In this document: positions 15,703 through 47,423 of the stretch, one piece after another | Layout of the letters: each line of letters begins with the position of its first letter | Numbering within the stretch: position 1 is the first letter of the stretch | Origin: an uncultured Armatimonadetes bacterium | GTDB taxonomy: Bacteria; Armatimonadota; Hebobacteria; Hebobacterales; Hebobacteraceae | Length of the DNA: 64,000 bases | Assembly (NCBI GenBank): GCA_963716175.1 | Contig: OY970296.1 | Location: 452,031 to 516,030 of the forward strand | Reading direction: 5' to 3' | Program-made: the position numbers and the translations under genes | The notes under the pieces: model-generated | The model's database searches: none | What the model was told of the DNA's origin: nothing | Seen by the model: the letters and a program-made list of their open reading frames with translations, nothing else

Positions 15703-15783
15703 GCCAGTGCCGCCGCGGCGGCCGCTTGCCGCGGCCTAGCCGCTGATGGGGCGGGGCCAGCAGACCGGAGTGACGGGAGAGCG

Positions 15784-19775: not shown

Positions 19776-19787
19776 GGACGGAGACCG

Positions 19788-23005: not shown

Positions 23006-23074
23006 GCGCGATCCGCGCTGGCTGTGAAACTTCCTGCCAGCCATTTCCGTATCCCACAGTGGCGGAGGCCGTGG

Positions 23075-23644
23075 ATGAGTGGGACACAGGTCCCAGAGGA
23101 TGAGGGACAGCTAATCCGGCTCTGCCGCGAGGGCGACCAAAGCGCCTTCGATAGCCTGGTTTCCCGCCATTACCGCGGGATCTACAACATGACCTACCGC
23201 ATGCTGGGAAATGCCGAAGATGCCTCGGACCTGACTCAGGAGACCTTCCTGAGGGCCTACACACGGTTGGAGACCTTCCAGCTGGGCCGCCCCTTCACCG
23301 CCTGGATCAGGCGGATCGCCACCAATCTCTGCATAGATCACCTGCGCCAGCGCGGTCAGCCCACCTTGTCCCTGGAGGAACGGCTGGAGTCGGGTGTGGA
23401 GGAGGCCGATAGCCGCCCGGAGGGCTCCCCGGTGGAGCGAATGGAGATGGCCGAGGATTCCCAGCGGGTGCTGGCAGCGGTGCAGCGGCTGCCGGCAAAG
23501 CAGCGGGCGGTGCTCGTCATGAGGCACATCGAAGGCATGACCCTGGAAGAGATCGCGGCCGCGCTGCGCTGGCCGCTGGGCACGGTGAAGGTGAACCTGT
23601 TCCGCGGCCGCCAGGCGGTCCGCGAGATGGTGGGTGAGCTATGA
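23075..23644 (+). CDS. ECF (sigma-70 family group IV) RNA polymerase sigma factor
   Basis: Region 2 (DLTQETFLRAYTRLETF) and region 4 (MTLEEIAAALRWPLGTVKVNLFRGR). Start placed at the internal Met; the track ORF begins at 23024. Confidence 0.85.
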   Translation: MSGTQVPEDEGQLIRLCREGDQSAFDSLVSRHYRGIYNMTYRMLGNAEDASDLTQETFLRAYTRLETFQLGRPFTAWIRRIATNLCIDHLRQRGQPTLSLEERLESGVEEADSRPEGSPVERMEMAEDSQRVLAAVQRLPAKQRAVLVMRHIEGMTLEEIAAALRWPLGTVKVNLFRGRQAVREMVGEL

Positions 23645-24258
23645 AGCGAAATGTGATGACTTGCTCCGCGGTGGCCGATCTGCTGGAAGCTTACTTCGAG
23701 CAGGTGCTTCCGGAGGGCAAGGCAGCGCTGGTGGCAGCCCATCTCCGGCAGTGCCGCGCCTGTTCCGGCAAGCTGGCCCAGATCGAGAAGATCACGGCGG
23801 CTCTGGCTGCGGTGCCGAGCAGCGAGCCGAGCGCAGACCTGGCGCGGTTGATCTCAGCTCGCGTGGCCGCGCTGCCGCCGGCCGCTCGACGTCGCTGGCT
23901 GGTGGTGGGATGGCGCCGCCTGGAGGTGCTGGCCGCAGCGTTCATGGTCTTCCTGGCGGCCTGGCGCTATGCCCTGCCGCTGCTCCTCTCCGAAGAGGCA
24001 GGCCGACTCCGGATCATCATCTGGGCCAAGCATGCCACCGCTCAGTTGGCGATCTGGGCGACGGCCCTGGCCGAGCCCTGCCACCGCCTCTGGCTGGCGC
24101 TACGAGGAACGCCGGAGGCGCTGAGGCCGGTTGTCACTGCGGTCGCGCCGACGGTCGCGCTCTACGCGGCGGCCGAGGTCGTCATCATCGCCGCCGTCAT
24201 CGTGATCGCTCATCGCACTCATCGCGCTCGTTTCGCTTCCGCAACCATCCTGCTGTGA
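23641..24258 (+). CDS. Anti-sigma factor (zf-HC2 type) with TM segments
   Basis: ATGA overlap with the sigma factor gene. HLRQCRACSG zinc-finger motif near the N-terminus, with hydrophobic helices after it. Confidence 0.7.
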   Translation: MKRNVMTCSAVADLLEAYFEQVLPEGKAALVAAHLRQCRACSGKLAQIEKITAALAAVPSSEPSADLARLISARVAALPPAARRRWLVVGWRRLEVLAAAFMVFLAAWRYALPLLLSEEAGRLRIIIWAKHATAQLAIWATALAEPCHRLWLALRGTPEALRPVVTAVAPTVALYAAAEVVIIAAVIVIAHRTHRARFASATILL

Positions 24259-24271
24259 AGGAGGAAGCTAC

Positions 24272-25811
24272 CATGAAAGGGTACTGCAGCGAGACTGTGG
24301 GGAGACGCGACTTGCGCTGGACAGCATGCCTGCTGATGGTGTTGGCGGCGAGCGCGCTGCTCTGGAGCCAGCTCGCGCTCGCGGCCGGCCCGCCCCTAGA
24401 CCTGTCCGGCACCTGGAAGTTCAAGGCCGACTGGGAAGAGAACGGCCAGGCCCTGGGGTGGCAGAAGCCCGAGTTCGATGATTCCACCTGGCGCGACCTG
24501 GCGGTGCCTGGAACCTGGGAAGGGCAGGGCGTCACTACCACCAACCCCCGCTGGCCGGGATCGGAGCCGTACAACGGCTACGCCTGGTACCGGCGCCACT
24601 TCTCCGTCCCGGCGGATTGGGGCCAACCGAACGAGAGCCTGCACATCGGGGCGATTGACGATATGGACTGGGTGTACATCAACGGCCAGCTGGTCGGGTC
24701 CACCAGCGGCGAGAGGGCCTTTGAACAGGAGCGGGAGTACGACCTCAAGCCCGGCCTGCTCAAGCCCGGCGCCGATAACGTGATCGCCATCCGCATCCTG
24801 GACACAGCAGGCAAGGGGGGCATCGTAGAGGGGCCGGTGGAGCTGGTCGGGTCCGCGCCGGAGTCAGCAGCAGAAGAGGAGCCAGGCGAAGCGGCTCCGC
24901 CCCCCGGCAAGTACCCCGAGAAGCGGGGCGACATGGTGCAGGTGGTGGGCAGTGTCACCGTGCCGCCTGGCAGCCAAGTGGACGGAGATGCGGTGGCGGT
25001 GGGCGGCTCGGTTGATGTCAAAGGATATGTCACCGGAGACGTGGTCGCGGTGGGCGGCTCAGTCACGATCCGGCCGGGGGCGAGGGTGGATGGAGACGCC
25101 GTGGCCGTGGGCGGCACCGTCAAGACCGAAGGGGATGGCATAGTCAAGGGTCAGGTCACCCAGGTCACCCTCTTCCCCTGGGCCATCCCGGGTATCTTCG
25201 GGCTCGCCTTCCTCACTGGCTCGTCTTCTCTCGTCTTCGTGCTGGTGAAGAGGCTGATCCTGTGGGGGCTGCTGGCGGTGCTGCTCGCGCTGATCTGCCC
25301 TAAGCGCCTGCAAGTGATGGCGCGGGCCCTGCCGCTTTACCCGGGATGGGTGGCCGGGCACGGCGTGGTGGGCTGGGTATTGACCCCGGCGGTGGTGCTG
25401 CTGGTGGCGCTGGTGGCGGCCGCCGTCTGCGTGGTGCTTGCCATCACCATCATTGGCATCGTGCTGATCCCGGCCGTGGCGCTGGTGCTGGTGGCGGTGG
25501 TGCTTGGCCTATTCCTCCTGCTCTGCCTCGGGCTGGGCGGGGTCTGGGTGAGCATAGGGCAAGCGCTCATCGCCCGCATGGGCCGGCCGGAGGCGAGCGT
25601 GCTGCCGGCGGCGCTGCTAGGTGTGGTATTGACCGCGGTCGCTTCGGCGGTCCCCGTGGCGGGGACGCTGGTGCTGATCACGCTTGTGATCTTCGCCTAC
25701 GGGCTGGGGCTGATGACCGGAGGGGGAACGAGACCGGAATGGACTCATCGGCGCCTGGGAATCCGCCGCGCTCCCGAGGCTGCTCCGGCCTCGCAGACTC
25801 CCACCGCCTAG
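24272..25811 (+). CDS. Polytopic membrane protein with a signal peptide, a GH2-N-like (galactose-binding jelly-roll) domain and bactofilin-like beta-helical repeats
   Basis: The real start is an ATG about 640 nt inside the 725-aa track ORF (23634..25811), just after the anti-sigma stop. LSGTWKFKADWEENG...NGYAWYRRHFSVP...WVYINGQLVGS...DLKPG..NVIAIRILD resembles the Glyco_hydro_2 N-terminal sugar-binding domain. Repeats (VDGDAVAVGGSV)x3 are bactofilin/DUF342-like. At least 6 TM helices follow. Confidence 0.6.
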
Positions 25812-33716: not shown

Positions 33717-36269
33717 TTGCCCGCCTCCGGCGGGGACGGCGCTGTCGAATCTCGCGACAGGCGGGAAACCGCGCCCCAACGAAGAACCAAGCGCCAGATC
33801 AGGGAGGGCCTAGAGGTGGCGATACAAGACTTCGAGCTCAGTGCCGACCAACTCCGCGTGGTCTGCGATGCCAGCAGCCTGGGGTTCGAGACCACGGCGG
33901 AGCTGCCCACGCTGGAGGACAGCGTGGGCCAGGACCGCGCCATGGCCGCGATAGACTTCGGGCTGGAAGTGAAGACGCCGGGCTACAACATCTTCGCGGT
34001 GGGGCCGACTGGGACGGGGCGCATGTTCGCGGTGCTATCCCGGGCCCGGGAGGCAGCGGCGAAGCAGCCCACCCCGGATGACTGGTGCTATGTCAACAAC
34101 TTCGACGATGCCCGCCGGCCGGTGGCGCTGCGCCTGCCGGCGGGCCGCGCGGTCGAGTTCTCCCGGGAAGTGGAAGAGCTAATCCAGATGTGCAAGCAGG
34201 AGATTCCGCGCGCCTTCGAAAGCGAGGCCTACGAGCAGCGCAAGGAAGCGGCGATCGGGGACGTGCAGGCCGAGCGCAACCGCTTGCTGCGCCAACTGGA
34301 CGAGGAGGCGCGGGCCGAGGGGCTGGTGATCCAGGCCACGCCCATGGGGATTATCTCGCTGCCGCTGGCCGACGGCAAGGCCATGTCCCGGGAGCAGTAC
34401 ATGCAACTCCCTCCCGAGGAGCGAGACGCGATAGACAAGAAGATGGAGCGGCTCCGCGACCGGATCGCGGAAGGGCTGGGGCAGGCGCGGCAGCTTGAGA
34501 AAGAGGCGCGAAAGCGGGTGGAGGAGCTGGATGCTCAGATCGCGATGATGACTATCGGCCATCGCTTCGAGGAAGTGAAGGCCAAGTACCAGGACCATGC
34601 CAGTGTGGTGACGCATCTCGACCGCCTGGCTCAGGATGTGCTGCAGCACCTGGACGAGTTCCGCCCCGGGGAATCACCCCAGGGCGAGGCGCCGCCCACG
34701 GAGGCGGTTCCGCCCCGCTATCGGGTCAACGTCCTGGTGACCAACGAGAAGGGCGCCGGGGCGCCAGTGATGCAGGAGCAGAGCCCCACCTACTACAACC
34801 TGGTCGGAAAGCTGGAGTACCGGCCGGTGGCCGGGGGCGCGATCACGGATTTCACCTTGATCAAGCCAGGCGCATTCCACCTCGCCAACGGCGGCTACCT
34901 GATCCTCCAGGCACTGGAGGTGCTGCTCAACCCCTTCGCCTGGGAGGCGCTCAAGCGGACCATGCGCAGCCGCAAGGCCACCATCGAGAACATCGGAGAG
35001 CAGTACAGTCCGGTCCCGGCCGCCACTCTGCTCCCGGAGCCGATCCCCCTTGACACCAAGGTGATCCTGGTGGGCTCGCCCCTGCTCTATTTCCTGCTCT
35101 ACCAGTGGGATGAGGATTTCGGCAAGCTGTTCAAGGTGAAGGCCGACTTCGATGTGGACATGACGGCCAGCACCCAGGCCAACCGCAGCTATGCCGCCTT
35201 CATGGCCACCCACTGCCGCAACCACGGCCTCCGCGAGCTGACCAAGGAAGCCGTGGCCAGGGTGATCGAATACGGGATGCGGCTGGCGGCCGATCAGGAG
35301 CGGCTCTCCACTCGCTTCGCCGCCGTCGCCGACCTGCTCACCGAGGCCAACTTCTGGGCCCAGCGGGCGGGAGCCGAGTTGATCGGGGCCGAGCACGTGG
35401 ACCAGGCCTTGGAGCACAAGGAGTACCGCTCCCGCCGGCTCGCGGACCGCCTCTTCGAGTTCATCGCACGGGGCGATCTCATCGTGGACGTGACCGGCGC
35501 GGTGCCCGGGCAGGTCAACGGTCTGGCCGTGCTGGATCTGGGGGATTACGCCTTCGGACGACCCTCGCGCATCACCGCCCGGGTCACGCCCGGCCGCTCC
35601 GGTGTGGTCAACATCGAGCGCGAGGCGCGCCTGGGCGGGGATATCCAGCACAAGGCGGTGATGATCCTCACCGGCTATCTCGCTGGCAGCTATGCCTCGG
35701 AGGCCCCCCTCTCTGTTACCGCCAGCCTCTCCTTCGAGCAATCGTACGAGCTGGTGGAGGGGGATTCCGCCTCCTGCGCCGAGCTCTACGCCATCCTCTC
35801 CATGCTCGCCGACGCGCCCATTCGCCAGGGCATCGCGGTCACCGGCTCCATGGACCAGAATGGGAACGTGCAGCCCATCGGCGGGGCCAATCAGAAGATC
35901 GAGGGCTTCTTCGCCACCTGCAAGCTGAAGGGATTAGCCGGGGATCAGGGGGTGATGCTCCCGCGCCAGAACATCAAGAACCTGACGCTGAAGCCAGAGG
36001 TGGTGGAGGCCGTGAGGGAGGGTAAGTTCCACATCTGGGCGGTCTCCACTGTGGACGAGGGTGTCGAGGTTCTCACTGGCGTGAGAGCCGGCTCGCCCAG
36101 AGAGGCGGATACCATCCACGGGCGGGTGGCCGCCCGGCTGCGCAAGTTCGCGGATGCCCTGAGCGGTGTGAAAGAAGAGAGAATCAAGCAGATCATTGAG
36201 CTGCCTCCCAGCGCCGCCACCCCCCGTCCCCCCACCCCTCCGCCACCACCCATACCGCGACACGGTTGA
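33717..36269 (+). CDS. Lon-like ATP-dependent protease (AAA+ module plus S16 Lon_C peptidase domain), Pro-rich C-terminal tail
   Basis: GQDRAMAAIDFGL and NIFAVGPTGTGR (Walker A) AAA+ region. Lon_C proteolytic domain with catalytic Ser context TGSMDQNGNVQPIGGANQKIEGFF. Tail PRPPTPPPPPIPRHG. Confidence 0.8.
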   Translation: MPASGGDGAVESRDRRETAPQRRTKRQIREGLEVAIQDFELSADQLRVVCDASSLGFETTAELPTLEDSVGQDRAMAAIDFGLEVKTPGYNIFAVGPTGTGRMFAVLSRAREAAAKQPTPDDWCYVNNFDDARRPVALRLPAGRAVEFSREVEELIQMCKQEIPRAFESEAYEQRKEAAIGDVQAERNRLLRQLDEEARAEGLVIQATPMGIISLPLADGKAMSREQYMQLPPEERDAIDKKMERLRDRIAEGLGQARQLEKEARKRVEELDAQIAMMTIGHRFEEVKAKYQDHASVVTHLDRLAQDVLQHLDEFRPGESPQGEAPPTEAVPPRYRVNVLVTNEKGAGAPVMQEQSPTYYNLVGKLEYRPVAGGAITDFTLIKPGAFHLANGGYLILQALEVLLNPFAWEALKRTMRSRKATIENIGEQYSPVPAATLLPEPIPLDTKVILVGSPLLYFLLYQWDEDFGKLFKVKADFDVDMTASTQANRSYAAFMATHCRNHGLRELTKEAVARVIEYGMRLAADQERLSTRFAAVADLLTEANFWAQRAGAELIGAEHVDQALEHKEYRSRRLADRLFEFIARGDLIVDVTGAVPGQVNGLAVLDLGDYAFGRPSRITARVTPGRSGVVNIEREARLGGDIQHKAVMILTGYLAGSYASEAPLSVTASLSFEQSYELVEGDSASCAELYAILSMLADAPIRQGIAVTGSMDQNGNVQPIGGANQKIEGFFATCKLKGLAGDQGVMLPRQNIKNLTLKPEVVEAVREGKFHIWAVSTVDEGVEVLTGVRAGSPREADTIHGRVAARLRKFADALSGVKEERIKQIIELPPSAATPRPPTPPPPPIPRHG

Positions 36270-36463: not shown

Positions 36464-37252
36464 TCACCGGTCGTGCAGAGATGTCTGTTTCGAGAATCTC
36501 GCATCAAGGTAGCTGATTATGGTTCTCGAAGCATTGATCACCAGCAGGGCCTCTTCTTCTTCTAGCAATGCTTGGCTAGGGTGAGCGACGCTCGCGGCGT
36601 TCCTGATAGGGTTGAGGGCATCCAATATCCCACCAAATGCTTGAAGGATTCTCTCGATATCCTGTCGTCTTGAGCCCAGGTCCTGTAGCGCAACGTGTTG
36701 CTGGCGTAAGAGTCTGAGCAACCTAGCGGGTGAGTCATCTCTTGAGTATGGAATGCTGGCATCCTCACACACTGCTCGCAGGTAGCCGTGCACGGCTGTA
36801 TGTATACGATCAACGCCGCTGACTGCTCCGCTTGCTCGAAGCAGCGTTTCGGTATCGCTGATCGCTCGCTCGACTACGCGCGAGGTGATCTTGGGTGCCG
36901 GGCTTCCAACTGGCTGCCCCTCCAGTCTGCTTATCATCTTGCGAATCTCGCTCTGTAACTCCTGAGTACGAGTGGACGCGGCCGACTTCGTTGACACAGG
37001 AAATCTCTCAATGACCCCGCGGAGTATCTGGGCCTGTACGTTTGGGGGAGAACCTTTCAGAACCGCTATGAACCTTTCCCGCGTCGTTCCTTCATACTGA
37101 TACGGGTCGATGTCAAGCTCGCAGTACTCCGGGTAGAACTCCGCGTGTGTCCGATAGCTGAAATCCCCAAGGTAGCCGCCAGATACCCCTATATAGCGGT
37201 TGACTACTTTCATGATCTCGGCATTGGTCAGTCCTGATGCTGGCATTGGCAT
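36464..37252 (-). CDS. AbiJ-like abortive-infection protein with a C-terminal HEPN (Abi_C) domain; lies in a low-GC island
   Basis: C-terminal Rx4-6H HEPN motif (IRNAASVAHPSQALLEEEEALLVINASRTIISYLD). Region GC is visibly below the flanking DNA. Start taken at the internal Met of the 296-aa ORF. Confidence 0.55.
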   Translation of the reverse strand: MPMPASGLTNAEIMKVVNRYIGVSGGYLGDFSYRTHAEFYPEYCELDIDPYQYEGTTRERFIAVLKGSPPNVQAQILRGVIERFPVSTKSAASTRTQELQSEIRKMISRLEGQPVGSPAPKITSRVVERAISDTETLLRASGAVSGVDRIHTAVHGYLRAVCEDASIPYSRDDSPARLLRLLRQQHVALQDLGSRRQDIERILQAFGGILDALNPIRNAASVAHPSQALLEEEEALLVINASRTIISYLDARFSKQTSLHDR

Positions 37253-37256
37253 GCTC

Positions 37257-37293
37257 TCCGTAGGGCAGGAGCGTTTCTCCTGCCAGTTGTACG
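37257..37293. repeat. REP-like palindromic element, GTAGGGCAGG family (GTAGGGCAGGAG-cgttt-CTCCTGCC)
   Basis: 8-bp perfect stem with a 5-nt loop; shares the GTAGGGCAGGAG head with the copy at 53321. Confidence 0.6.
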
Positions 37294-37302
37294 GTAGCGG
37301 GC

Positions 37303-37375
37303 CTGGACCGCCCGCCCTACAGAACCGCGGTCCTGCAAACGGCCCAGCGGGCATGGAATGCCCGCCCTACAGCGG
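37303..37375. repeat. REP-like element, GGGCAT-n4-ATGCCCGCCCTACA family; overlaps the radical-SAM stop codon
   Basis: CGCCCGCCCTACAG ... GGGCATggaaATGCCCGCCCTACAG; same arm as the copies at 47516 and 53355. Confidence 0.6.
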
Positions 37376-38392
37376 CGGCCCCTCATACGCTAGATAGCAG
37401 GCGCGGCAGAAGGCCGGGTTGCGGCCGGTGCGAATCTGCTCCCGCAGGCGCTGCATCGCCGAGCCGTTCCAGGCGGTGGCGAAGCTGGCGCCCGACTCCA
37501 GCGCATTGCCCAGCAGCAAGCCCTCTGGGCCCGCGGCATAAGGACACGGGGCCACGTCTCCCCGGACCGTGATCGCAGTCCTGCCCCAGGGCCAGCGGCA
37601 GGGCCTGCCCTCCGCCGGCTTCCGCGGCGGGGGAGGCGCTTCGGGACAGCGGAACTCGAGATTCGCCGCCAGGGCGAGGCGGCGGGCCTCGGGGAGCACG
37701 CGCTGTAGATCCTGGCCCAGCACGCGGCGCTCCGCCACCACGCGCTCCAGGGACTCAGACCCGAAGTTGGTGAGCTTGGCGGTGCACAGCAGGCCGTCCA
37801 CTCCCCACTCCGCGCAGCGCTGAACCAGCGCCGGAATCTGTGGGGCCGATTCCCGCTGGATCACATGCCAGACCCGGATCACCGGGGACCGCCGCCGGCC
37901 TCGCTCCCGCACCAGGGCCGCGATCCCCTGGGAGATGCGCTCCAGGTCGGACCCAGGCCGCAGCCGGGCATGAGTCTCTGGATCGGCGGCATCAACCGAG
38001 ATGTTGAGATGGTTGAGGCCACAGGTGAGGAGCTGGCGACGTGTCTCCTCGCCCAGCACGCTGCCATTGGTGGTGGTGAGCACCCGCACTCGGCGGCGCC
38101 GCGCCTCCTGCACCAGGCCGAAGAAATCCGGGTTCAGCAAGGGCTCGCCCAGCCCCACCAGCTTGATCCGATAGACGGTGGGAAGCTGGTCGAGCAGTCG
38201 GGAGAAATCGGCGAGTGAGAGGTGGGCGCGCGGGAAAGCGCCATCGGTGCTGGGGCAATGGGGACAGCGGTAGTTGCAGAAGCTGGTGGGCTCGATGTCC
38301 GCCCGCGCCGGGAGCGCGCGGCTCGCCGCCGGGCGGTGGCGGTAGGCTTGCCGCAGGCGCAGGGAGTTCAGCAAGGCGGAAGCTGGCCGCAT
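37367..38392 (-). CDS. Radical SAM enzyme with a C-terminal SPASM/twitch-like Cys cluster
   Basis: CNYRCPHC (CxxxCxxC) radical SAM motif. C-terminal CRWPWGRTAITVRGDVAPCPY...CRACY auxiliary cluster cysteines. Start at the internal Met (MRPASALL) of the 427-aa ORF, which itself opens on TTG. Confidence 0.8.
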   Translation of the reverse strand: MRPASALLNSLRLRQAYRHRPAASRALPARADIEPTSFCNYRCPHCPSTDGAFPRAHLSLADFSRLLDQLPTVYRIKLVGLGEPLLNPDFFGLVQEARRRRVRVLTTTNGSVLGEETRRQLLTCGLNHLNISVDAADPETHARLRPGSDLERISQGIAALVRERGRRRSPVIRVWHVIQRESAPQIPALVQRCAEWGVDGLLCTAKLTNFGSESLERVVAERRVLGQDLQRVLPEARRLALAANLEFRCPEAPPPPRKPAEGRPCRWPWGRTAITVRGDVAPCPYAAGPEGLLLGNALESGASFATAWNGSAMQRLREQIRTGRNPAFCRACYLAYEGPPL

Positions 38393-38403
38393 GCCGCGTC
38401 CCC

Positions 38404-39139
38404 TCAGAACAGCAGCGAGAAGGTGATGGGGCGAACCCGCCAGGATCCCTCTTCCTTCACCAGCCAGAGGTTCCCGCTGACGTGCTTGCGGAGAAGCCCG
38501 GCGAAGCGCAGGGTGGCATCGAAATCCACCCGGATCCCGTTCAGGGTAGTGGGCCGCCCGGCCACCTCCAGGCGGGTCATCTTCACCCAGTGGGGTGGGC
38601 GGCGAGGCACATTCCACCAGTGGAAGGTGAGTGCCTTCATCCCCCCCCAATCAGACCGCAGCCAGGCGTGCAAGAAGTCGAACGCCGCCTGCCGCACCGC
38701 GGGCTCCTGGCGCCGGTCGGCCTTCGTGGGGCTGCGGTCGGGGACCTGCGCCTCCGGAGGCAGCTCGTTGAACCAGTAGAGCTGGCGCACCTGCCAGCTC
38801 TTGCTCGCGCCCTCCTCCACGTAGCGCAGCACCATGATGCCGCGGGTCGGGAGATTGGGGTCGGTCATGGGTCCCGCGGAACTCAATCGCCCCGATCCTC
38901 CCATCCGCCCTCTGTTTGTCGAGCTGAGGCATGTGCGCGAACGGGCAGGGGCCATAGAGATTGGCCTTCTGATTGGGAAGCATGCGCTTGATCGCGTCTC
39001 GGTCGTTGCGGCTGAAGGCGAAGAGGAAATCCCGCGCCACCTGCGCCGCCTCCGGGGGCATACCCTGGGCCCTGCTCGGACTCCCCCAGGCCATCGCCAG
39101 TCCAACAGTCAGCATCACGGCCGCGATTTTGGTCTTCAT
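38404..39139 (-). CDS. Secreted hypothetical protein (signal peptide plus NTF2/SnoaL-like region), apparently split over two frames
   Basis: Frame X: MKTKIAAVMLTVGLAMAWGSPSRAQG signal plus AAQVARDFLFAFSRNDRDAIKRML. Frame Y from about 38869: MVLRYVEEGASKSWQVRQLYWFNE...LWLVKEEGSWRVRPITFSLLF. Both look protein-like and the join is near 38870-38930. Confidence 0.35.
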
Positions 39140-39453
39140 GGCTCTCCCGAAGCTGATGTTACCTGGTTTCGACGAGAAAGCCAAGCACTTGGGCCAGGAG
39201 CTGCCGATTGCGCGCAGGCAAAGAGGAAGGAGGCCGCGGCGCGAGGTATAAAGTCTACTGGTGGTTGCGGTGCCGTCGCAGTTACCAGACCGACGAGCAG
39301 CCCCCTGGCCACACCTTGCAAGGCGGCTCGACCTCGCAGGCGGTGCACCTGCTGGCAAGGCGAGCCGCAGACGGCGGGCCACCGGGATGCAGCGCAGCCT
39401 GGCGGGCTTGCGCGCGGGCCGCAGTAGCTCTAGTAGGAGGCAAGATATCCATC

Positions 39454-40896
39454 ATGTCAGTGGTAGCGCGACCCACGCCCCGCGCGCGGCCGCGGACCGC
39501 GGGTGAAGCCCGAGCGCGACAGATCCGGTGGTGGCACTACCTGCTCGCCGGCACCGGCCTGGTGACGCTGGGTGGAATGGCCTATGGCTTCTACGCCGCC
39601 TGGTTCGCCGTCACCCATGTCCGGACCAGCTACGCGCGGGTCAGTGGCTATGTTGTAGTTCTGTCGGCGAAATCCGACACCCGCGTCAAGCGGGTGCTGG
39701 TGCGGACGGGAGAGAAGGTCCGCGAGGGGCAAACGCTGGCCATCCTGGACAACGCCGATGTCGCCGCCCAGGCCGAGCAGGCCAAGGCCACGCTGCTGGC
39801 GCGGGAAAGCGCCCTCAACCGGGCGGAGGCCGAGCTGGATATGACCATCCGGCAGAGCGCGGCCAGCATCGAGGAGGCGGAGGCGCAGCTGGCCGCCTCC
39901 CAGGCGCGGCTCTCCCAGGCGGAGGCAGAGAAGGAGATGGCCTCCCGCACCGAGCGGGATGAAGTGAAGCGCGCCCAGGCCGAGCTGGCCGTGGCCAAAG
40001 CGCGGCTGAGGCAAGTGGAGGTGGGCCCCCGTCCCCAGGAGATCGAGCAGGAGAAGGCCGACCTGGCTTCCGCGGAGTCCCAATCGGCCAGTGCCGCGGC
40101 CACCTTGCGGCGGATGGAGAAGCTGCAGAAAGAAGGCGCGGTCTCGGAGCAGGCGCTGGACGCGGCTCGCACGGATCTGGAGGTGGCCCAGGCCGCGGTG
40201 AACTTGCGTCGCCAGAAGTTGAGCCTGCTGCAAGCCGGCAGCCGGCCGGAGGATATCGAGGCCGCACGACAAGCAGTGACCTCCGCCGAGGCCGCCGTGG
40301 CGCTGGCCACGGCCAAGAGCTTCGACAGCGAGATGAAGGTCCAGCAAGTGGCCACCCGGGTGGCGGAGAAGCGGCAGGCTGCGGCTGGAGTTCGGGGGGC
40401 CCAGTCCCTGCAGCGCACGGTAGCCCTCAAGGAACAGGACGTGGTGGCACAGCGAGCCGCAGTGGCCGAGGCGAAGGCCGCCCTGGAAGCGGCCAAGGCT
40501 CGTGTCTCGGACACGGAGCTGCGCAGCACGGACAACGGGGTAGTGGTGGCGGGACAGGGCCAGAGTATTCACGAGGGCGAGTCAGTCACCAACGGACAGC
40601 CCATCGTCACCATCGTCTCCACCGCGCGGCCTTTCTGGATCAGCGCCTCCGTCTCCGAACTGCAGGTGTCCCAGGTGAAGGAAGGGCAGCCGGCGCTGAT
40701 CTGGATTGACGCCTTCCGCAGGCAGGTCTTCCATGGCACGGTGTCACAAGTGGGAGGGGCCACCGAGTTCTCGGCCGCGGACACCCCGTGGGCCTTGAAG
40801 CAGGTACCACTGAGGCTCAGCTTCGACCCCGGCAAAGTGAAGGACAGTCTCAAGCCCGGCATGAGCTGTCGGGTGTGGATAGACGTGCGGCACTGA
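39454..40896 (+). CDS. HlyD-family secretion protein / efflux periplasmic adaptor (membrane fusion protein)
   Basis: N-terminal TM anchor, long coiled-coil region (AEAQLAASQARLSQAEAEKE...) and a C-terminal beta-barrel region (VTIVSTARPFWISASVSELQVSQVKEGQPALIWIDAF). AGGAGG RBS upstream. Confidence 0.85.
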   Translation: MSVVARPTPRARPRTAGEARARQIRWWHYLLAGTGLVTLGGMAYGFYAAWFAVTHVRTSYARVSGYVVVLSAKSDTRVKRVLVRTGEKVREGQTLAILDNADVAAQAEQAKATLLARESALNRAEAELDMTIRQSAASIEEAEAQLAASQARLSQAEAEKEMASRTERDEVKRAQAELAVAKARLRQVEVGPRPQEIEQEKADLASAESQSASAAATLRRMEKLQKEGAVSEQALDAARTDLEVAQAAVNLRRQKLSLLQAGSRPEDIEAARQAVTSAEAAVALATAKSFDSEMKVQQVATRVAEKRQAAAGVRGAQSLQRTVALKEQDVVAQRAAVAEAKAALEAAKARVSDTELRSTDNGVVVAGQGQSIHEGESVTNGQPIVTIVSTARPFWISASVSELQVSQVKEGQPALIWIDAFRRQVFHGTVSQVGGATEFSAADTPWALKQVPLRLSFDPGKVKDSLKPGMSCRVWIDVRH

Positions 40897-40900
40897 CGCG

Positions 40901-40929
40901 GTGGGGCGCGGGCCCAGGCCGCGCCCCCA
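40901..40929. terminator. GC hairpin GGGGCGCGG-gcccagg-CCGCGCCCC between convergent genes
   Basis: 9-bp perfect stem read from the sequence; no strong U-tract. Confidence 0.35.
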
Positions 40930-40933
40930 ACTG

Positions 40934-41527
40934 CTATACCTGTTGGTCCAGGATTCTCCTGCTGCGCTCGTCGAGGGCGTGCATATCCTCAATCTCGTAG
41001 CGGTTGCCATCGGCGTCCTGGAGCATGAGGCGCCCCTTTGCCAGCACCCGCAAGTCCTCCCGGTCTCGCACATCGAAAACGCGATAGCCGCGGTCGGTCT
41101 CCACCTCCCAGCGGGAGGCGCCGTGAGCGTCCTCGATGTCGTAGATGACGGTGATCTTGGGCACGAAGTAGGCCCGGCTTAGCTCCTCGGTCAGCACCCG
41201 CCGGCTCTCGCAGTCGAGCCCCTTGGGGTTGCGCAGCAGCACCGCCTCCCGCCCTTTCTCGTCCACCAGGCTCAGGTAGTCGGCGACCTCGGAGATGGGG
41301 AAAACCGGCGCCGGCTTCAGGTCCACGTGTTCGGTCTTGCCATCCACCAACACGTGGAGCCGCCGGAACTCGTCTCGCCAGATGCGCAGCCGGCTGGCAT
41401 CAACGATCTCCAGCCGCTGCAGTTCCTGGTCCCAGCTCGCGGCGCTGCCCAGGCGCTCCTGGGAGGGCCCAGTCTCGCCCGGCGCCGGCGCGCCAGTCTG
41501 CTCTGTCTGATCCTGGGGATCTTCCAC
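40934..41527 (-). CDS. DUF1854-like protein (commonly paired with ABC transporter genes)
   Basis: Composition and motifs (LRNPKGLDCESRRVLTEELSRAYFVPKITVIYDIED) recall DUF1854 proteins found next to ABC exporters. Co-directional with the adjacent ABC gene. Assignment from memory only. Confidence 0.5.
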   Translation of the reverse strand: MEDPQDQTEQTGAPAPGETGPSQERLGSAASWDQELQRLEIVDASRLRIWRDEFRRLHVLVDGKTEHVDLKPAPVFPISEVADYLSLVDEKGREAVLLRNPKGLDCESRRVLTEELSRAYFVPKITVIYDIEDAHGASRWEVETDRGYRVFDVRDREDLRVLAKGRLMLQDADGNRYEIEDMHALDERSRRILDQQV

Positions 41528-41583
41528 GGGTTTCCTCGCGAGGGCGTGACCCTCGCCTCGCCGGGTACTGCTAGCTGCGGTCC

Positions 41584-43851
41584 CTACCAGGCCCGCACTC
41601 TGGACAGCTCCGACTGGAGCTTGCAGAGCCGGCTGTAGAGCCCATCGGACTCCAACAGCTCATCGTGGCTGCCGATCTCGCCGATGCGGCCATGCTCCAT
41701 CACGACGATCTTTGTCGCCTTGCGCAGGGTCGAGAGCCGGTGCGCGATGGCGAACGTGGTCCGATTCGCCACCAGGCGCTCCAACGCCTCCTGGATCAGC
41801 ATCTCGGTCTCGGTGTCAACCGAGGAGGTGGCCTCGTCCAGGATGAGAATCCGCGGGTTCTTGAGAATGGCGCGGGCGATGGAGACGCGCTGGCGCTCGC
41901 CACCGGACATCAACTGCCCCCGCTCGCCGGTGAGGGTATCGTAGCCATGGGGCAGGTTGACGATGAAGTCGTGGGCGTTGGCCGCCTTGGCGGCGGCCAC
42001 GATCTCCTCTGGCTTGGCCTCGGGCGCCCCGTAGGAGATGTTCTCGGCCACCGTGCCGTGGAAGAGGAAGGGCTCCTGCAGCACCACGCCGATCTGCTGG
42101 CGCAGGGAGCGCAGGGAGAGCTCCCGCACGTCATATCCGTCTATCCGGACCTCGCCCTCGTCGACATCGTAGAAGCGGCTCAGCAGTTGCACCAGGGTGC
42201 TCTTCCCGGCTCCGCTGGGACCCACCAGCCCGATCACTTCCCCCGGCTCGGCCACGAAGCTGACCTCCTGGAGTACGGGCTTGCCGGGCTCATAGCTGAA
42301 GGTGACGTTGTCGAACTCCACCCGCCCCTCGAGCCGGGGCAGGACCACCGAGCCCGGCGCCTCCGGGATCTCGGGCGCGGTATCGAGCACCTCGAACACG
42401 CGCTCCGCGGCGGTGAGGGCGTGCTGCACCCGGTGGTTCATCTCGCCCAGCATCTGCACCGGCATGTAGAACTGCCACATGAGCTGGGTGAACATGACCA
42501 GGGTGCCCACCGTGGTCAGGCCCAGCACCGCCTGGTAGCCGCCATAGCCGTAGACCACGAGCGAGCCCACGGAGGTGATAAGGCCGATGGCCGGGAAGAA
42601 AAACGTCCACAGCTTGGCCGCATTCAGCTCCTGGGTGAACAGCGCGCCGCTGCGATCCCGGAATCGCTTCGACTCCCGGTGCTCCTGAGCGAAGGACTTG
42701 ACCACTCTGATCCCCGGGATGGAATCGGCCAGCACCGCGCTCAGGCCCGCCCACCGTCGCCACACCTTCTGGTAGACCTGGTGGATCAGGCGGCCAAACC
42801 AGTAAGTGCCGATGGCGATGAAGGGGGTGGGCAAGAGGGTAAGCGCGGCCAGCGCGGGGTTGGCCGCGAACAGCATCACGCAGATCACGGGGATGGTCAG
42901 CAGGTTGATGATGATCTGCTGCAGGCCATCGGCGATGAAGTACTGCAAGCGCATGATGTCGTTGGTGACGCGGGACATGATCTGGCCGGTCTGCTTCCGG
43001 CTGAAGAACCCGAGCGAGAGCATCTGCAGGTGGTCGTAAAGCTCGGTTCGCATGTCCAGCACCACCCGCGCCCCCAGCCACTCCATCATGTAGCCGCGGG
43101 CCATGCTCACCACGGTCCGCACCAGGTAGATCAAGAGCAGCCAGGTCACCACCAGGGAGAGCCCCGGCAGGTACTTGGGCCTGAGCACGCCGTCGAAGAG
43201 ATAGCGGGTGACGTAGGCCGGCAGCAGGTTCAGCACAGTCAGGACGATGCTCAGGAGGAAGCCCACGATCGCCACCGTGTGGTAGGGCCGCAGGTAGCCG
43301 ATGAGGCGCGCGAGCAGTTGCCCTCGCTTCATGCAGAAAGGGCAGACCTCAGACCAGCGAGGCAGCGCCCGCCCGCAGGTGGGGCAGCGGACGCTGCGCT
43401 GCGGGCCGTGTCCCTTGCGGCCGCCCTCTTCCTGTTTCTCGTCCTCCGAAGAGAGGCGGCGCAGGATGTAGTAGGCGCGCGACATCTGCGGAGCCACAGA
43501 GCGGCTGAACCGCAGCAGCTCCACCGACTCCGAGCCCGTGACCGCCTCCAGCGAGCCGCTGCCGATGAAATCGCGCAGGCGGAAGCGGCGGACATCGGAC
43601 AGAGGCAAGTCTACCTCCACCCGGGCCGCGCCGTTCTCGGGCGCCAGAGTCGCCAGCCGCCGGTCAGTGACCAGCAGCCACCGGTCGCCGTACTCCCCCT
43701 CAGGCGTGATGTCGCTGCGGAGGCTGATCAGGCGCCGCTCGTCCTCCTGCATCAGGCGAGCGACCTCCGCCTCCACGGCCGCAGGCAGCTCCTGCTGGAG
43801 CTCGGCGTCGAGCAGCTTATCTATCTGTTGGCGTTGGGCTTCTGTCATCGT
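41584..43851 (-). CDS. ABC exporter (fused permease and ATPase) with an N-terminal bacterial PH-like domain and a zinc ribbon
   Basis: Walker A GPSGAGKSTL, signature LSGGERQRVSIARA and Walker B ILILDEATS. Six TM helices. N-terminal RWLLVTDRRLATL...VELLRF (PH-like) and CPTCGRALPRWSEVCPFC. Confidence 0.85.
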   Translation of the reverse strand, partial: TMTEAQRQQIDKLLDAELQQELPAAVEAEVARLMQEDERRLISLRSDITPEGEYGDRWLLVTDRRLATLAPENGAARVEVDLPLSDVRRFRLRDFIGSGSLEAVTGSESVELLRFSRSVAPQMSRAYYILRRLSSEDEKQEEGGRKGHGPQRSVRCPTCGRALPRWSEVCPFCMKRGQLLARLIGYLRPYHTVAIVGFLLSIVLTVLNLLPAYVTRYLFDGVLRPKYLPGLSLVVTWLLLIYLVRTVVSMARGYMMEWLGARVVLDMRTELYDHLQMLSLGFFSRKQTGQIMSRVTNDIMRLQYFIADGLQQIIINLLTIPVICVMLFAANPALAALTLLPTPFIAIGTYWFGRLIHQVYQKVWRRWAGLSAVLADSIPGIRVVKSFAQEHRESKRFRDRSGALFTQELNAAKLWTFFFPAIGLITSVGSLVVYGYGGYQAVLGLTTVGTLVMFTQLMWQFYMPVQMLGEMNHRVQHALTAAERVFEVLDTAPEIPEAPGSVVLPRLEGRVEFDNVTFSYEPGKPVLQEVSFVAEPGEVIGLVGPSGAGKSTLVQLLSRFYDVDEGEVRIDGYDVRELSLRSLRQQIGVVLQEPFLFHGTVAENISYGAPEAKPEEIVAAAKAANAHDFIVNLPHGYDTLTGERGQLMSGGERQRVSIARAILKNPRILILDEATSSVDTETEMLIQEALERLVANRTTFAIAHRLSTLRKATKIVVMEHGRIGEIGSHDELLESDGLYSRLCKLQSELSRVRAW

Positions 43852-44198
43852 GCTCTTCCCGCGCGCACGCCGGCTTGGCCACAGGCCGGGCCGGCGCACC
43901 TCATCATGCCCTAATTTCCACGAGAATGCAAGTTCTTCCCTCCTTGCTCCGTTGGATATGGGCGGCCACATATACCGCGGACACAGCCAAAAAACTTGTG
44001 CGCGAATGCCAGGGATGTGGTATCCTCACACGGAAATGCAGTCTGGAATCGCGGTGGTCCCGCGGACGTTAACTCCCTCTTGAAAGGGGGTGGCACGGGT
44101 GAGCTGTGGAAGCTGTGGGAAGAAGGCGGCCCCGAAGAAGACCAAGAAGAAGAAGTAGGCCGCAGCAGTAGCGCCCGCCACGCGCGGGAACTGAACCG

Positions 44199-44227
44199 AG
44201 GCCGGCCTCCCAAGCAGGAGGCCGGCC
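44199..44227 (+). terminator. Intrinsic-terminator-like hairpin GAGGCCGGCCTCC-caagc-AGGAGGCCGGCC followed by TTCGCTTTCC
   Basis: 11-bp perfect stem; sits downstream of a Lys-rich sORF and at the 3' end of the convergent membrane protein gene. Confidence 0.4.
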
Positions 44228-44266
44228 TTCGCTTTCCGCTCACATGTTCAAGCAGCCGACCGGTGA

Positions 44267-46258
44267 TTAGCTGGGCGGCTGATGGATGCCGAAGATGGCC
44301 GAGAGCAGGGCCAGGCCAGCGTCGGTGAGATAATCCCCCAGCACCAGGCCCAGGAAGGCCGGGCGGAAGGCCCGGTACAACCTGAGCCCGCCGTAGCGCC
44401 GGATCAGAGTCGTCAGCGCCCAGGCGATGAACACATTCACCCACATGGAGCGGTTGGTCTCATAAGAGCTGGCGATGAGAAAGCCCACCGGGCTCAGGGG
44501 CCACCACACGAAACTGCTGTGGAGCCACACCAGCAGCACGGTGAAGGCTCCCCCTAGCACCAGGGCGACGCGAAGCCAGTTGTCCGGCGCCTCCGGAGCG
44601 CGCAGGCTGGAGTCCAACTCCCCGAAAGCCCAGTGCGGGTAGCTGTAGAAGGGCCAGCTCTCGAGGCTGGTGGCACCGTGCTGGTAGAGCACGTAGATCA
44701 AGGCCGGGATGCCAAACCCCACCATCGCGACCAGCGCCAGCGCCGCAGCCCACGGCCAGGCGCGGCCCCGCAGCCGGCCGGCCTGGAGCAGCTTGAAGCT
44801 GTCCATGATCTGGGGCATGGCCAGGTTCATGGGGTCATACATGTAGATGACAGAAAGATAGGAGTACAGGGTGAGCGAAGGCGCGCCTATGGGCACCGCG
44901 CCCACCGTCCGCATCATCACCATCCGGGGGAAGAAGCCAGTGTCCACGTACATCACTCCCCCGGCCGCCACCAGCCGCGAGGCCCCCACCAGCACCGCGT
45001 AGAACATCCCTATCAGTCCCGCAAACGCCCACCAGGACATGCCCGCCTTCACCGCCCACCAGACCATGAAGCCGTTGGCCAGCAAGAACCCCATCACCGC
45101 CCAGCGGCCCGCCAGCGGCCCGTACGGGTCCGCCTCCTTGGGCCCCCGCCCCACCAGTCCCAGCAAGCCTGACGCGATGGCCTTGCGGGACTGATAGAGG
45201 AGCACCGCGGTGAGGGCGATGAAACCCCCCGCTTCCTCGAAGCCGACAAAGACGCGGGGGTTGATCGCCACCGCCGCCGTGCCTCCCTCCTCCGCCACCC
45301 CGAACGCGCCCCACACCAGCAGCTGCAGCCGGAAGAAGGCATAGAAGAACCAGAGGCTGAGGGACACTTCTGCCGGAAGCAAGCAGGTGATACCGATGAT
45401 GGGGAAGATGATGGAGAACGACATGTCGGAGAGCACGTTCCAGGGCAGGCTCATACCGGAGAAGTAGCGCCCTATCCGCAGATCCCAGAGCGCAGGGGAC
45501 GGGATGCTGGGGAAGATGCGGTGGAACCAGCCCAGCAGCGAGAGAGTGGCGGGAAGGGCGAATCCCAGCCAGAAGATGCGGTTGCTGAGCAAGCTGCCAC
45601 GAAGGGTGGGGCGGGGTTCACTGCCGGTGATGGAGAGAGGCACGTCCACCAGGGGAAAGGCCAGCCGCTGGCGCTCGATCCAGTCTCTACTCAGCAGCGC
45701 ACCCAGACAGAAAATGCCGGCCATCAGGGCCAGGGTGAAGGCCGACCAGGCCACCATCGGTGCCGCCCAGGCGGCCCAGGGCAGAGGGAGGCCCTGGGGC
45801 AGACCTTCCCAGAACCAGTCGTTCGCCTGGAGCGGCTCGAGCCTCAGCCACAGCGGCACGTTGGGCCAGATCGAGTGCTGCCAGTTATTCTCTGGCCGGG
45901 CCATGTAGAAGGGAAAAGTGGTGGCCGAGACCAGGTAAGGCAGCCCGCCCTGCATCGCCAGCCCCACGGAGATGATCAGCATGCCATAGGCCACCAGCAG
46001 CTCGCCGCGAGTGAAGGCGCGGCCCGGCCAGAACCGGAGCAGGGCCCCGTTTAGCAGCACCAGCACGAATAGAACCACCACCGGGCTGCTCAGCAGGGAA
46101 CCGGAGCCTACCGACCAGGTGCGGCTGACGAAGGCGAGATAGGGGTTGATGGAGGCGAGGAGAGCGACGCTGAGAGCTCCGAGCAACACCGCCCGCGGGG
46201 TAATGGGGTTGACAGTCCGATCCTGGGCCTCGAGCTGTGCCGGATTGCCGCGTTCCAC
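44267..46258 (-). CDS. Large polytopic membrane protein (663 aa, at least 14 TM), function unknown
   Basis: Almost entirely hydrophobic helices rich in aromatic and Gly residues; no recognisable catalytic motif. Confidence 0.7.
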   Translation of the reverse strand: MERGNPAQLEAQDRTVNPITPRAVLLGALSVALLASINPYLAFVSRTWSVGSGSLLSSPVVVLFVLVLLNGALLRFWPGRAFTRGELLVAYGMLIISVGLAMQGGLPYLVSATTFPFYMARPENNWQHSIWPNVPLWLRLEPLQANDWFWEGLPQGLPLPWAAWAAPMVAWSAFTLALMAGIFCLGALLSRDWIERQRLAFPLVDVPLSITGSEPRPTLRGSLLSNRIFWLGFALPATLSLLGWFHRIFPSIPSPALWDLRIGRYFSGMSLPWNVLSDMSFSIIFPIIGITCLLPAEVSLSLWFFYAFFRLQLLVWGAFGVAEEGGTAAVAINPRVFVGFEEAGGFIALTAVLLYQSRKAIASGLLGLVGRGPKEADPYGPLAGRWAVMGFLLANGFMVWWAVKAGMSWWAFAGLIGMFYAVLVGASRLVAAGGVMYVDTGFFPRMVMMRTVGAVPIGAPSLTLYSYLSVIYMYDPMNLAMPQIMDSFKLLQAGRLRGRAWPWAAALALVAMVGFGIPALIYVLYQHGATSLESWPFYSYPHWAFGELDSSLRAPEAPDNWLRVALVLGGAFTVLLVWLHSSFVWWPLSPVGFLIASSYETNRSMWVNVFIAWALTTLIRRYGGLRLYRAFRPAFLGLVLGDYLTDAGLALLSAIFGIHQPPS

Positions 46259-46378
46259 CTGCTCTCCTGCCGCGCTCTATTCTCCGGTGCTTCCGCCGGG
46301 TCCTGTTGCGGAGGAGTTGGCTGCGCAGCGGCGAACGGAGGCCGCCACCGTTGCTCGCGAAGCCCCCGGGGAGGACGA

Positions 46379-47423
46379 CATGAGAAGAGCGAAGGCGAAG
46401 CTGCGCGCGGGCGTGATCGGGATCGGCATGGGCCGGCTGCATATGGAGGGATATGCCACCCATCCGCGCAGCGAGCTGCTGGCGGTATGCGATCTCAATG
46501 TGGCCAGGGCAAAGGCATTGGCGGAGAGATGCGGCGCCCGCTACGTCTTCCGCGACTGGCGCCAGCTCATCGCCATGGATGAGCTCGACCTGGTCTCGGT
46601 GGCAGTTCCCAATTATCTCCATGCCCGCATGACCATCGCCGCCCTGCGGGCCGACAAACACGTGCTGTGCGAAAAGCCGATGGCCACCCGGCTGGAGGAC
46701 GCGGAGATCATGGCCCGGGAGGCGAAGCGGGCGAAGAAGCGGCTGATGGTAGACATGAGCTATCGTTTCGACCCGCTGCAGCAGGAGATGTGGCGCCGCA
46801 TCCGGCGGGGCGACCTGGGCCGCATCTACTACGCCAAGTCGCACTACACGCGGCGCAAGGGCATCCCGCTGGGGGCCAGCGCCTGGTTCATCAACAAGCG
46901 CCAGGCCGGGGGAGGACCCAGCGTTGATCTCGGTGTCCACGCCTTCGATCTGGTGTGGTGGCTGATGGGGTCGCCCAGGCCCACCTGGGTGCTGGGCTCG
47001 ACCTATGCCGAACTGCTGCCAGAGCGAGCGTCGCAGATGGGGGTGAAGGGCGATGTGGACGATCTCGCTGCTGCCGTGGTGAAGTTCGATACCGGCCAGA
47101 CCATCTTCTTCGAGGCGAGCTGGGATGGGCACGTTCCTGGGCATGAGGGCTACGAGCTTTACGGGACCAAGGCCGGGGCCACTTGCCACGACTGGGAGAG
47201 CGATCTCAAGGTGACCATCCATTCCGACGACCGCCGCGGCAGGTCGGTGGACAGGCCGGTGAAGGCCACCCGCAAGACGCCTAGCGCCTATTGGCACTTC
47301 GTAGATGCCTGCTTGGATCGGCGCCTGAAGATGACCGCCTCCGCCGAAGAGTGCTTGCACGTGGCCCGGGTGCTGGATGCCATGAACCGATCGCAGAAGA
47401 CCGGCAAAGCGATCATGCTGTAG
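46379..47423 (+). CDS. Gfo/Idh/MocA-family NAD(P)-dependent oxidoreductase
   Basis: LRAGVIGIGMGRLHMEGY Rossmann start and the EKP motif (VLCEKPMA). Confidence 0.9.

Follow-up and report, generated by a model that had tools for sequence, protein, structure and literature searches.

A DUF1854-partnered ABC exporter with a PH-like and zinc-ribbon N-terminus, and its neighbouring HlyD-family adaptor gene, in an uncultured Armatimonadetes bacterium

ATP-binding cassette (ABC) exporters that are partnered by a DUF1854 protein are widespread: they occur in Armatimonadota, Planctomycetota, Lentisphaerota, Sumerlaeota, Latescibacterota and Poribacteria and, according to database annotation, in beta-proteobacteria. 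The closest described systems are covered by two curated equivalog models of NCBIfam, NF052233 (CphA_assoc_ABC, 'cyanophycin metabolism-associated ABC transporter') and NF052234 (CphA_assoc_prot, 'cyanophycin metabolism-associated DUF1854 family protein'). In Acidovorax and Cupriavidus, DUF1854 genes have been shown to be cofit with two cyanophycin-synthetase-like genes (cphA/cphA') and an ABC transporter (Price et al., bioRxiv 10.1101/072470). When searching the literature for bacterial PH domains together with ABC transporters, and for cyanophycin synthetase together with ABC export, we found nothing relevant beyond this study, and cargo, structure and biochemical mechanism are known for no member of the family. 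Here we describe such a pair in a stretch of 64,000 nucleotides (hereafter the window; contig OY970296.1 of assembly GCA_963716175.1, positions 452,031 to 516,030) from an uncultured Armatimonadetes bacterium. Three genes at 39454-43848 encode a HlyD-family adaptor (+ strand), a DUF1854 protein (− strand) and an ABC exporter (− strand). An earlier note, made from the sequence alone, had drawn attention to these genes and called exporters of this kind poorly characterised. Its finding is real and no mechanism is indeed known, but the pair is already catalogued in NCBIfam with genetic evidence on its relatives, and the system is thus a variant of a genetically flagged family. The best-supported reading is that of a type-I-secretion-like export machine that depends on DUF1854, in a variant independent of cphA. 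We give a probability of roughly 0.6 to the view that an envelope-spanning ABC export machine, conserved as a type but biochemically uncharacterised, has its inner-membrane and periplasmic components encoded at this locus.

The exporter gene (41584-43848, − strand) encodes a half-transporter of 754 aa in which a PH-like domain and a zinc ribbon precede a type-IV (B-family) transmembrane domain (TMD) and a nucleotide-binding domain. The earlier note had placed its start at 43851, which is one codon too far upstream: translation from there reads 'TMTEAQ...', whereas the ATG lies at 43848 and the database protein P0127, which is 100% identical to the exporter, begins with MTEAQ. In Pfam, ABC_membrane (PF00664) was matched over profile positions 2-274 of 274, together with ABC_tran (PF00005). 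As in other B-family exporters with the type-IV fold, a six-helix TMD is followed by an ATPase domain harbouring all motifs. The Walker A motif (residue 543), the Q-loop (591), the signature MSGGE (647), the Walker B motif ILILDE with the catalytic glutamate (667) and the H-loop (701) are all intact. When compared to solved structures in the PDB, residues 178-748 align end to end with Sav1866 (424 bits), TM287/288, TmrAB and MsbA, while residues 1-177 are covered by no solved structure in these alignments.

This N-terminal extension ahead of the TMD measures about 175 aa, and the PH-like domain and zinc ribbon that had been proposed for it were borne out. An AlphaFold2 model of the extension, built from a 29-sequence alignment, has a mean predicted local distance difference test (pLDDT) score of 88 and places the strands at residues 39-115 and a helix at residues 116-133. 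In this model a PH topology is confirmed, as the seven-stranded beta-sandwich is closed by a C-terminal alpha-helix; the predicted domain comprises residues ~33-133 (43450-43752, − strand). The Pfam family bPH_3 (PF14470) matches the exporter weakly (17.0 bits, E=0.008, under the gathering score of 23 bits) and the Poribacteria orthologue above the threshold (28.7 bits, E=1.9e-6). The putative zinc ribbon, at residues ~152-175 (43324-43395, − strand), has the form CPTC-x10-CPFC and lies directly before the elbow helix and transmembrane segment TM1. Its four cysteines (C155, C158, C169 and C172) are invariant in 29 of 29 diverse homologues, and the region shows short strands in the model (pLDDT ~76-79) and weak matches to the YacG, DZR and zinc_ribbon families. 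Two conserved CxxC knuckles in a small beta-hairpin module are what would be expected of a zinc ribbon.

The extension is kept in more than 110 full-length homologues. Its residues W57 and T61 are invariant, as are the four cysteines, and the N-terminal module forms 498 clusters at 50% identity with an N-terminal position in every case. The best NCBIfam match of the exporter, NF052233, aligns over residues 14-748 and therefore includes the extension; the isolated 177-aa N-terminus matches profile positions 7-162 of the same model (E=9.5e-11). The PH/zinc-ribbon module is therefore a feature of the family and not peculiar to the gene in the window.

Directly downstream lies the gene of the DUF1854 protein (40934-41527, − strand; 197 aa, GTG start). 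The identification as DUF1854 that had been made from the sequence proved correct: the match to PF08909 has an E-value of 6.8e-42 and scores 142.9 bits against a cut-off of 26.8, over profile positions 1-129 of 130. No transmembrane segment was found in this protein by hydropathy. Its AlphaFold model (pLDDT 82) predicts two small beta-rich sub-domains, each with a helix at its end, preceded by a disordered N-terminal stretch of ~30 residues. A representative protein library contains natural fusions of the order PH/zinc ribbon-ABC_membrane-ABC_tran-DUF1854 (P0339, P0370 and P0372; 930-1021 aa). These fusions place DUF1854 on the cytoplasmic side beside the ATPase domain and support a physical complex, and the DUF1854 protein is thus predicted to be a cytoplasmic subunit of the exporter. 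Sequence searches of PDB chains with the N-terminal extension or with the DUF1854 protein gave nothing significant, only YacG-like zinc-finger noise at E ~0.01. A motif of the form 'G..RW.V.TDR' is shared by the N-terminal module and the DUF1854 protein, and we considered that the two might be the same domain; the profile-profile probability was 0.5% and homology was rejected.

Furthermore, the association of the two genes holds beyond the window. We collected 92 related loci (numbered L001 and so on) and scored their neighbourhoods with phmmer. In 80 of the 92, DUF1854 is located directly downstream of the PH-ABC gene, and in the other 12 the contig ends, the frame is shifted or the match is weak, so that the co-occurrence check proposed in the earlier note came out in its favour. 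In every lineage compared below, the PH-ABC gene lies directly upstream of DUF1854. Co-transcription of the two genes, as had been claimed, is plausible: they share the strand, their spacer measures 56 nt, which we take as matching the 10-35 nt of homologous loci, and an AGGA Shine-Dalgarno sequence precedes the GTG start of DUF1854. A scan for sigma-70 promoters found none, and when 38500-46500 was compared to Rfam at E<=1, no RNA family and hence no riboswitch upstream of the operon was detected.

The adaptor gene (39454-40896, + strand) is convergent with the DUF1854/ABC pair, as judged from the strands of the open reading frames (ORFs). The earlier note had it divergent in its title and convergent in its text, of which only the latter holds. 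The adaptor gene is monocistronic in the window. Its product of 480 aa is a HlyD-family membrane-fusion protein, as had been proposed, with matches to Pfam HlyD_D23 and HlyD_3; the matches to the NCBIfam models HlyD, EmrA and RND_mfp are all under cut-off. The ATG at 39454 is backed by the alignment to the 429-aa orthologue of L008. The protein starts with an arginine-rich cytoplasmic tail and a single membrane anchor (residues ~27-54), continues with a very long helical hairpin region rich in alanine, glutamate and glutamine, and ends in a C-terminal beta-barrel. Between the two convergent stop codons, in a gap of 37 nt, we found a GC-rich hairpin (40903-40927, assigned to no strand) with a perfect 9-bp stem, GGGGCGCGG/CCGCGCCCC, whose arms occupy 40903-40911 and 40919-40927 around a 7-nt loop. 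Its RNA fold has an energy of −28.9 kcal/mol (z = −2.66), and only 1 of 200 shuffled sequences was as stable. The hairpin that had been described as a shared terminator is thus there, but a U-tract is absent on both strands and a terminator scan did not detect it, and for these reasons it is at most a possible bidirectional terminator.

The comparison of related loci links the adaptor to the exporter. A membrane-fusion protein gene follows DUF1854 directly and on the same strand in 9 of 9 Brocadiaceae, 5 of 5 Lentisphaerota and the single Sumerlaeota locus. In Brocadiaceae and Lentisphaerota the order on one strand is ABC-DUF1854-adaptor, and a gene for a TolC-like outer-membrane factor (OMF; family OEP) often comes next, namely in L018, L021 and L090 of the former and in L065, L069, L071 and L091 of the latter; fragments of such a gene lie at the contig ends of L029 (Brocadiaceae) and L024 (Lentisphaerota), and the contig of the Sumerlaeota locus ends at this position. 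In seven Armatimonadota loci of the window's clade (L005/L017, L008 and L011-L015) the adaptor is convergent, as in the window; no OEP gene lies beside it, and in L012 one is found upstream of the ABC gene. The link that had been supposed between adaptor and exporter is thus supported by the co-directional arrangement in Planctomycetota, Lentisphaerota and Sumerlaeota. That the adaptor recurs beside DUF1854 in two orientations and across four phyla speaks for a functional link and against inherited synteny. Two of the loci with a convergent adaptor come from metagenome-assembled genomes with other labels, L005/L017 (CP070666.1, labelled Gemmatimonadota) and L013 (labelled Bacillota, and also having radical SAM and LonB-like neighbours), and their loci are 60-65% identical to the DUF1854 protein of Armatimonadota. 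These bins may carry wrong taxonomic labels, and the fragmented gene calls of CP070666 suggest frameshift errors.

The machine that we infer, that is its complex formation, its partnership of adaptor and exporter in this genome, the roles of its PH-like domain and DUF1854 and the direction and nature of its transport, would work as follows. The 754-aa protein would form a homodimeric B-family exporter of the type-IV fold, and ATP hydrolysis is proposed because all catalytic motifs are present. Each protomer would carry the PH-like beta-sandwich and the four-cysteine zinc ribbon on the cytoplasmic side ahead of TM1, and the soluble DUF1854 protein would dock on the exporter as an obligatory cytoplasmic subunit. 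The HlyD-family protein would be the periplasmic adaptor of the exporter and would bridge to a TolC-like OMF whose gene lies in another part of the genome. The PH/zinc-ribbon module and DUF1854 would take the position that a C39 or C39-like domain holds in the ABC transporters of type I secretion and bacteriocin export, and may serve as a cytoplasmic platform for the recognition and loading of a polymer or peptide made in the cytoplasm, which would then be pushed through the conduit of ABC exporter, adaptor and OMF. The earlier note had called the exporter PH-domain-gated and suggested export in response to a cytoplasmic signal. This was not supported by our data: since the module sits where the cargo-binding C39 or C39-like domain does, a role in cargo recognition and loading is favoured over gating, and a function as cargo receptor is at least as likely.

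Several observations weigh against such a machine. We identified no cargo gene in the window, where only a 19-aa ORF at 44099-44158 was noted. No OEP homologue was found in the 64 kb either, with phmmer or, even at E<=10, with a purpose-built OEP profile hidden Markov model, in agreement with the earlier note, which had seen no outer-membrane factor. Here the adaptor gene lies on the opposite strand, so that co-regulation is not guaranteed. Finally, the adaptor is not an obligatory neighbour, as a sister clade in Armatimonadota (L001-L004, L019 and L020) lacks it in that slot, and ~55 Poribacteria loci, which have the pair only, and 3 Latescibacterota loci lack it within 10 kb. None of these lineages has an OEP gene next to the pair; in L092 of the Latescibacterota, an unrelated RND system that includes an OEP of its own is located upstream. 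The absence of the adaptor from these lineages indicates that the ABC-DUF1854 pair is the invariant core. In the sister clade, the slot convergent to DUF1854 is occupied by an unrelated multi-transmembrane protein of 552-565 aa without a Pfam match (L001 10607-12265 and L003 10719-12416, both − strand), in which a possible transglutaminase-like cysteine motif (GDCESKA) was spotted by eye.

PH domains classically bind lipids or membranes. The pair could accordingly be read as a self-contained inner-membrane exporter or flippase, for instance for a lipid or a small molecule, with a regulatory or membrane-binding PH-like domain and with the HlyD protein as a mere syntenic neighbour in some lineages. 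The Poribacteria pattern makes this a serious rival even though we hold it to be unlikely, and the Latescibacterota loci and the Armatimonadota clade without an adjacent adaptor, the opposite strand of the adaptor in the window and the next-best NCBIfam matches of the transporter core, which are models of the lipid A flippase MsbA (470 bits), all fit it. However, the adjacency of the adaptor in four phyla and two orientations, with a TolC-family gene completing several of the operons, is hard to explain by synteny alone, and none of the annotated neighbouring genes encodes a second exporter with which the adaptor in the window could work.

The NCBIfam matches raise the question whether the envelope-spanning machine exports cyanophycin. 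The locus might be the Armatimonadota orthologue of the 'cyanophycin metabolism-associated' exporter and might export a poly-amino-acid resembling cyanophycin, made by a synthetase of the CphA type whose gene lies in another part of the genome, as has been suggested for beta-proteobacteria. NF052233 and NF052234 are the best NCBIfam matches of the exporter and of the DUF1854 protein, the former nearly over the full length with the N-terminal module included, and a type-I-secretion-like conduit would suit a linear polyamide. Nevertheless, both proteins miss the equivalog cut-offs (689.1 bits against 880 and 117.2 bits against 150), as do the homologues from Brocadiaceae, Lentisphaerae and Poribacteria for NF052233 (608-643 bits). 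Moreover, no CphA-type gene, that is ATP-grasp plus Mur ligase, was found with Pfam among the scanned ORFs of the window, including every ORF of at least 470 aa; the large ORFs encode glycosyltransferases, a TPR protein, a LonB-like protease, glycoside hydrolases and similar proteins. The same holds for the Pfam-annotated 10 kb on either side of the homologues in Armatimonadota, Poribacteria, Brocadiaceae, Lentisphaerae and Latescibacterota. Because of the low scores and the lack of a cphA gene nearby, the idea of a cyanophycin-like polymer cannot simply be transferred to this locus, and we regard this explanation as quite improbable. A tie between the cargo and a cyanophycin synthetase encoded nearby, as in beta-proteobacteria, is improbable here.

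A third explanation concerns small peptides of the neighbourhood. In the gap of 418 nt between the ABC gene and the next gene upstream lies a conserved ORF of 19 codons with a GTG start (44099-44158, + strand), which encodes VSCGSCGKKAAPKKTKKKK and is divergent from the ABC gene and convergent with a DUF6785/DUF6784 gene. It forms a conserved block in related loci, and its Shine-Dalgarno sequence GAAAGGGGGTGG is common to the orthologues. The CxxC and poly-lysine peptide is kept through synonymous changes, including Ser AGC to TCG, in L003, L020, L010 and L093-L101, and these substitutions indicate that the ORF is under coding selection. A metagenome scan with a degenerate pattern yielded 9 matches, of which 8 encode the CxxC and poly-lysine peptide. 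All 8 adjoin the DUF6785 gene, the PH-ABC gene or both, and the ORF lies between the two in all four contigs that hold both. Three orthologues of the peptide that were looked up by exact sequence were absent from the protein collection. We also observed a GC hairpin (44200-44227; GGCCGGCCTCC / GGAGGCCGGCC, 6-nt loop) in the interval from the small ORF to the stop codon of the DUF6785 gene. It looks like a second shared convergent terminator-like element, again lacks a U-tract and, like the first hairpin, went undetected in the terminator scan.

On the other side of the adaptor gene, a radical SAM/SPASM enzyme is encoded at 37367-38650 (− strand), for which the NCBIfam typing is generic with all matches under cut-off. 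ABC exporter, HlyD adaptor and radical SAM/SPASM enzyme are a common make-up of gene clusters for ribosomally synthesised and post-translationally modified peptides. The machine could thus export a small ribosomal peptide, either the 19-aa peptide or a product matured by the radical SAM/SPASM enzyme. Such a reading could build on the coding selection and on the consistent position of the small ORF, and on the radical SAM/SPASM gene, which is a conserved companion of the adaptor in L008, L011, L013 and L015 and is weakly matched (37 bits) in L014. On the other hand, the small ORF was found in close relatives only; L008 and L011-L016 lack it upstream of the ABC gene, and the clade without an adaptor has it too. 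Its link to the exporter may therefore be plain synteny, and the exact-pattern scan was biased to one narrow lineage. The Brocadiaceae, Lentisphaerota and Poribacteria loci, in turn, lack the radical SAM enzyme, for which no specific maturase family scored above cut-off. Taken together, we consider export of such a peptide highly improbable.

The DUF6785/DUF6784 gene (44267-46258, − strand) encodes a polytopic membrane protein of 663 aa (Pfam DUF6785, E=6e-111; DUF6784, E=1e-25) for which we found no PDB or NCBIfam match. It lies upstream of the ABC gene in the Armatimonadota loci L001-L004, L008, L010, L011, L014-L016 and L019, and weaker homologues occur within 10 kb of the pair in Poribacteria (L063, L074 and L077-L079). 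With 418 nt and a GC hairpin in between, it probably forms a transcript separate from that of the ABC gene. Between the radical SAM and adaptor genes lies a small gene without a family match (38651-39105, − strand), the slot of which is filled by a 248-aa gene in L008, and a LonB-like protease is encoded at 33717-36269 (+ strand). The radical SAM gene, divergent from the adaptor, and the LonB-like gene are both conserved beside the adaptor in L008 and L013, and one or the other in L011, L014 and L015. The group of radical SAM, small and LonB-like genes could be an unrelated module or a peptide-maturation unit. A 296-aa Abi_C (abortive infection C-terminus) protein is encoded between the LonB-like and radical SAM genes (36464-37354, − strand) and is absent from this place in the syntenic L008. 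Further away, ~15-35 kb from the exporter, a long same-strand run of polysaccharide-biosynthesis genes (~5900-25800, + strand) resembles a large cluster for an exopolysaccharide or a cell-envelope glycan. It includes a polysaccharide pyruvyl transferase domain and several GT2 and GT4 glycosyltransferases, among them multidomain proteins of 890 aa and 977 aa.

The analysis adds to the catalogued family a confirmed PH fold in the predicted model, a family-wide zinc ribbon, operons with adaptor and OMF, and fusion proteins. With the shared PH/zinc-ribbon N-terminus, the DUF1854 fusions and, in several phyla, the completion by adaptor and TolC-like protein, the hypothesis of an 'ABC transporter near cphA' becomes the more precise one of a secretion machine that spans the envelope and has a distinctive cytoplasmic receptor module. 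The results also call for caution, as the 'cyanophycin-associated' label should not be transferred to homologues outside the beta-proteobacteria. A bolder and very doubtful proposal is that the PH/zinc-ribbon module and DUF1854 form an undescribed cargo-loading platform on a type-I-secretion-like machine that would thread a non-canonical linear cargo over both membranes, namely a non-ribosomal polyamide in the cphA-linked proteobacteria and a different polymer or a tiny lysine-rich peptide, such as the 19-aa CxxC-polyK peptide, in Armatimonadota. If true, this would make a new secretion-system subclass that extends over at least seven phyla. The analysis as a whole brings an incremental gain and no surprise, and it provides concrete targets for structural and genetic work.

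When compared to known systems, the parts of the locus resemble several of them without coinciding with any. The PH-like domain falls under the Pfam gathering score of the bacterial PH domains (bPH_3, PF14470; solved example 3b77) and, unlike these, shares one polypeptide with a zinc ribbon and an ABC exporter. The homodimeric exporters of the MsbA/Sav1866 type have the TMD and ATPase core in common with the exporter in the window, but the NCBIfam model of MsbA scores it below the cut-off of 602 bits, and these exporters have neither an N-terminal extension nor a DUF1854 partner nor an adaptor. With type I secretion systems (HlyB-HlyD-TolC) and PCAT-type transporters, the machine would have in common a B-family half-transporter, a HlyD-family adaptor and a TolC-family OMF, and in both cases an extra cytoplasmic domain lies N-terminal to TM1, which is the cargo-binding C39 or C39-like domain in type I secretion and bacteriocin exporters. 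HlyB-family and bacteriocin-ABC models match the transporter core at 318-420 bits, with every type I secretion score in NCBIfam under cut-off. No RTX or double-glycine cargo gene is found among the annotated genes here, although no search aimed at secretion signals was made. The N-terminal domain, a predicted PH fold with a zinc ribbon, differs from the papain-like C39 fold of the bacteriocin exporters, and DUF1854 would be an extra subunit that type I secretion systems do not have. The closest likeness is to the beta-proteobacterial systems of NF052233 and NF052234, which have the same two-gene unit with the full-length architecture and DUF1854 directly downstream. The proteins of the window differ from them in scoring under both equivalog cut-offs and in having no cphA-type gene within 64 kb or near their homologues in five phyla. 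Price et al. describe no adaptor or OMF partners for the beta-proteobacterial systems (bioRxiv 10.1101/072470), whereas a HlyD adaptor joins the pair in the window as well as in Planctomycetota and Lentisphaerota, with or without a TolC-like OMF.

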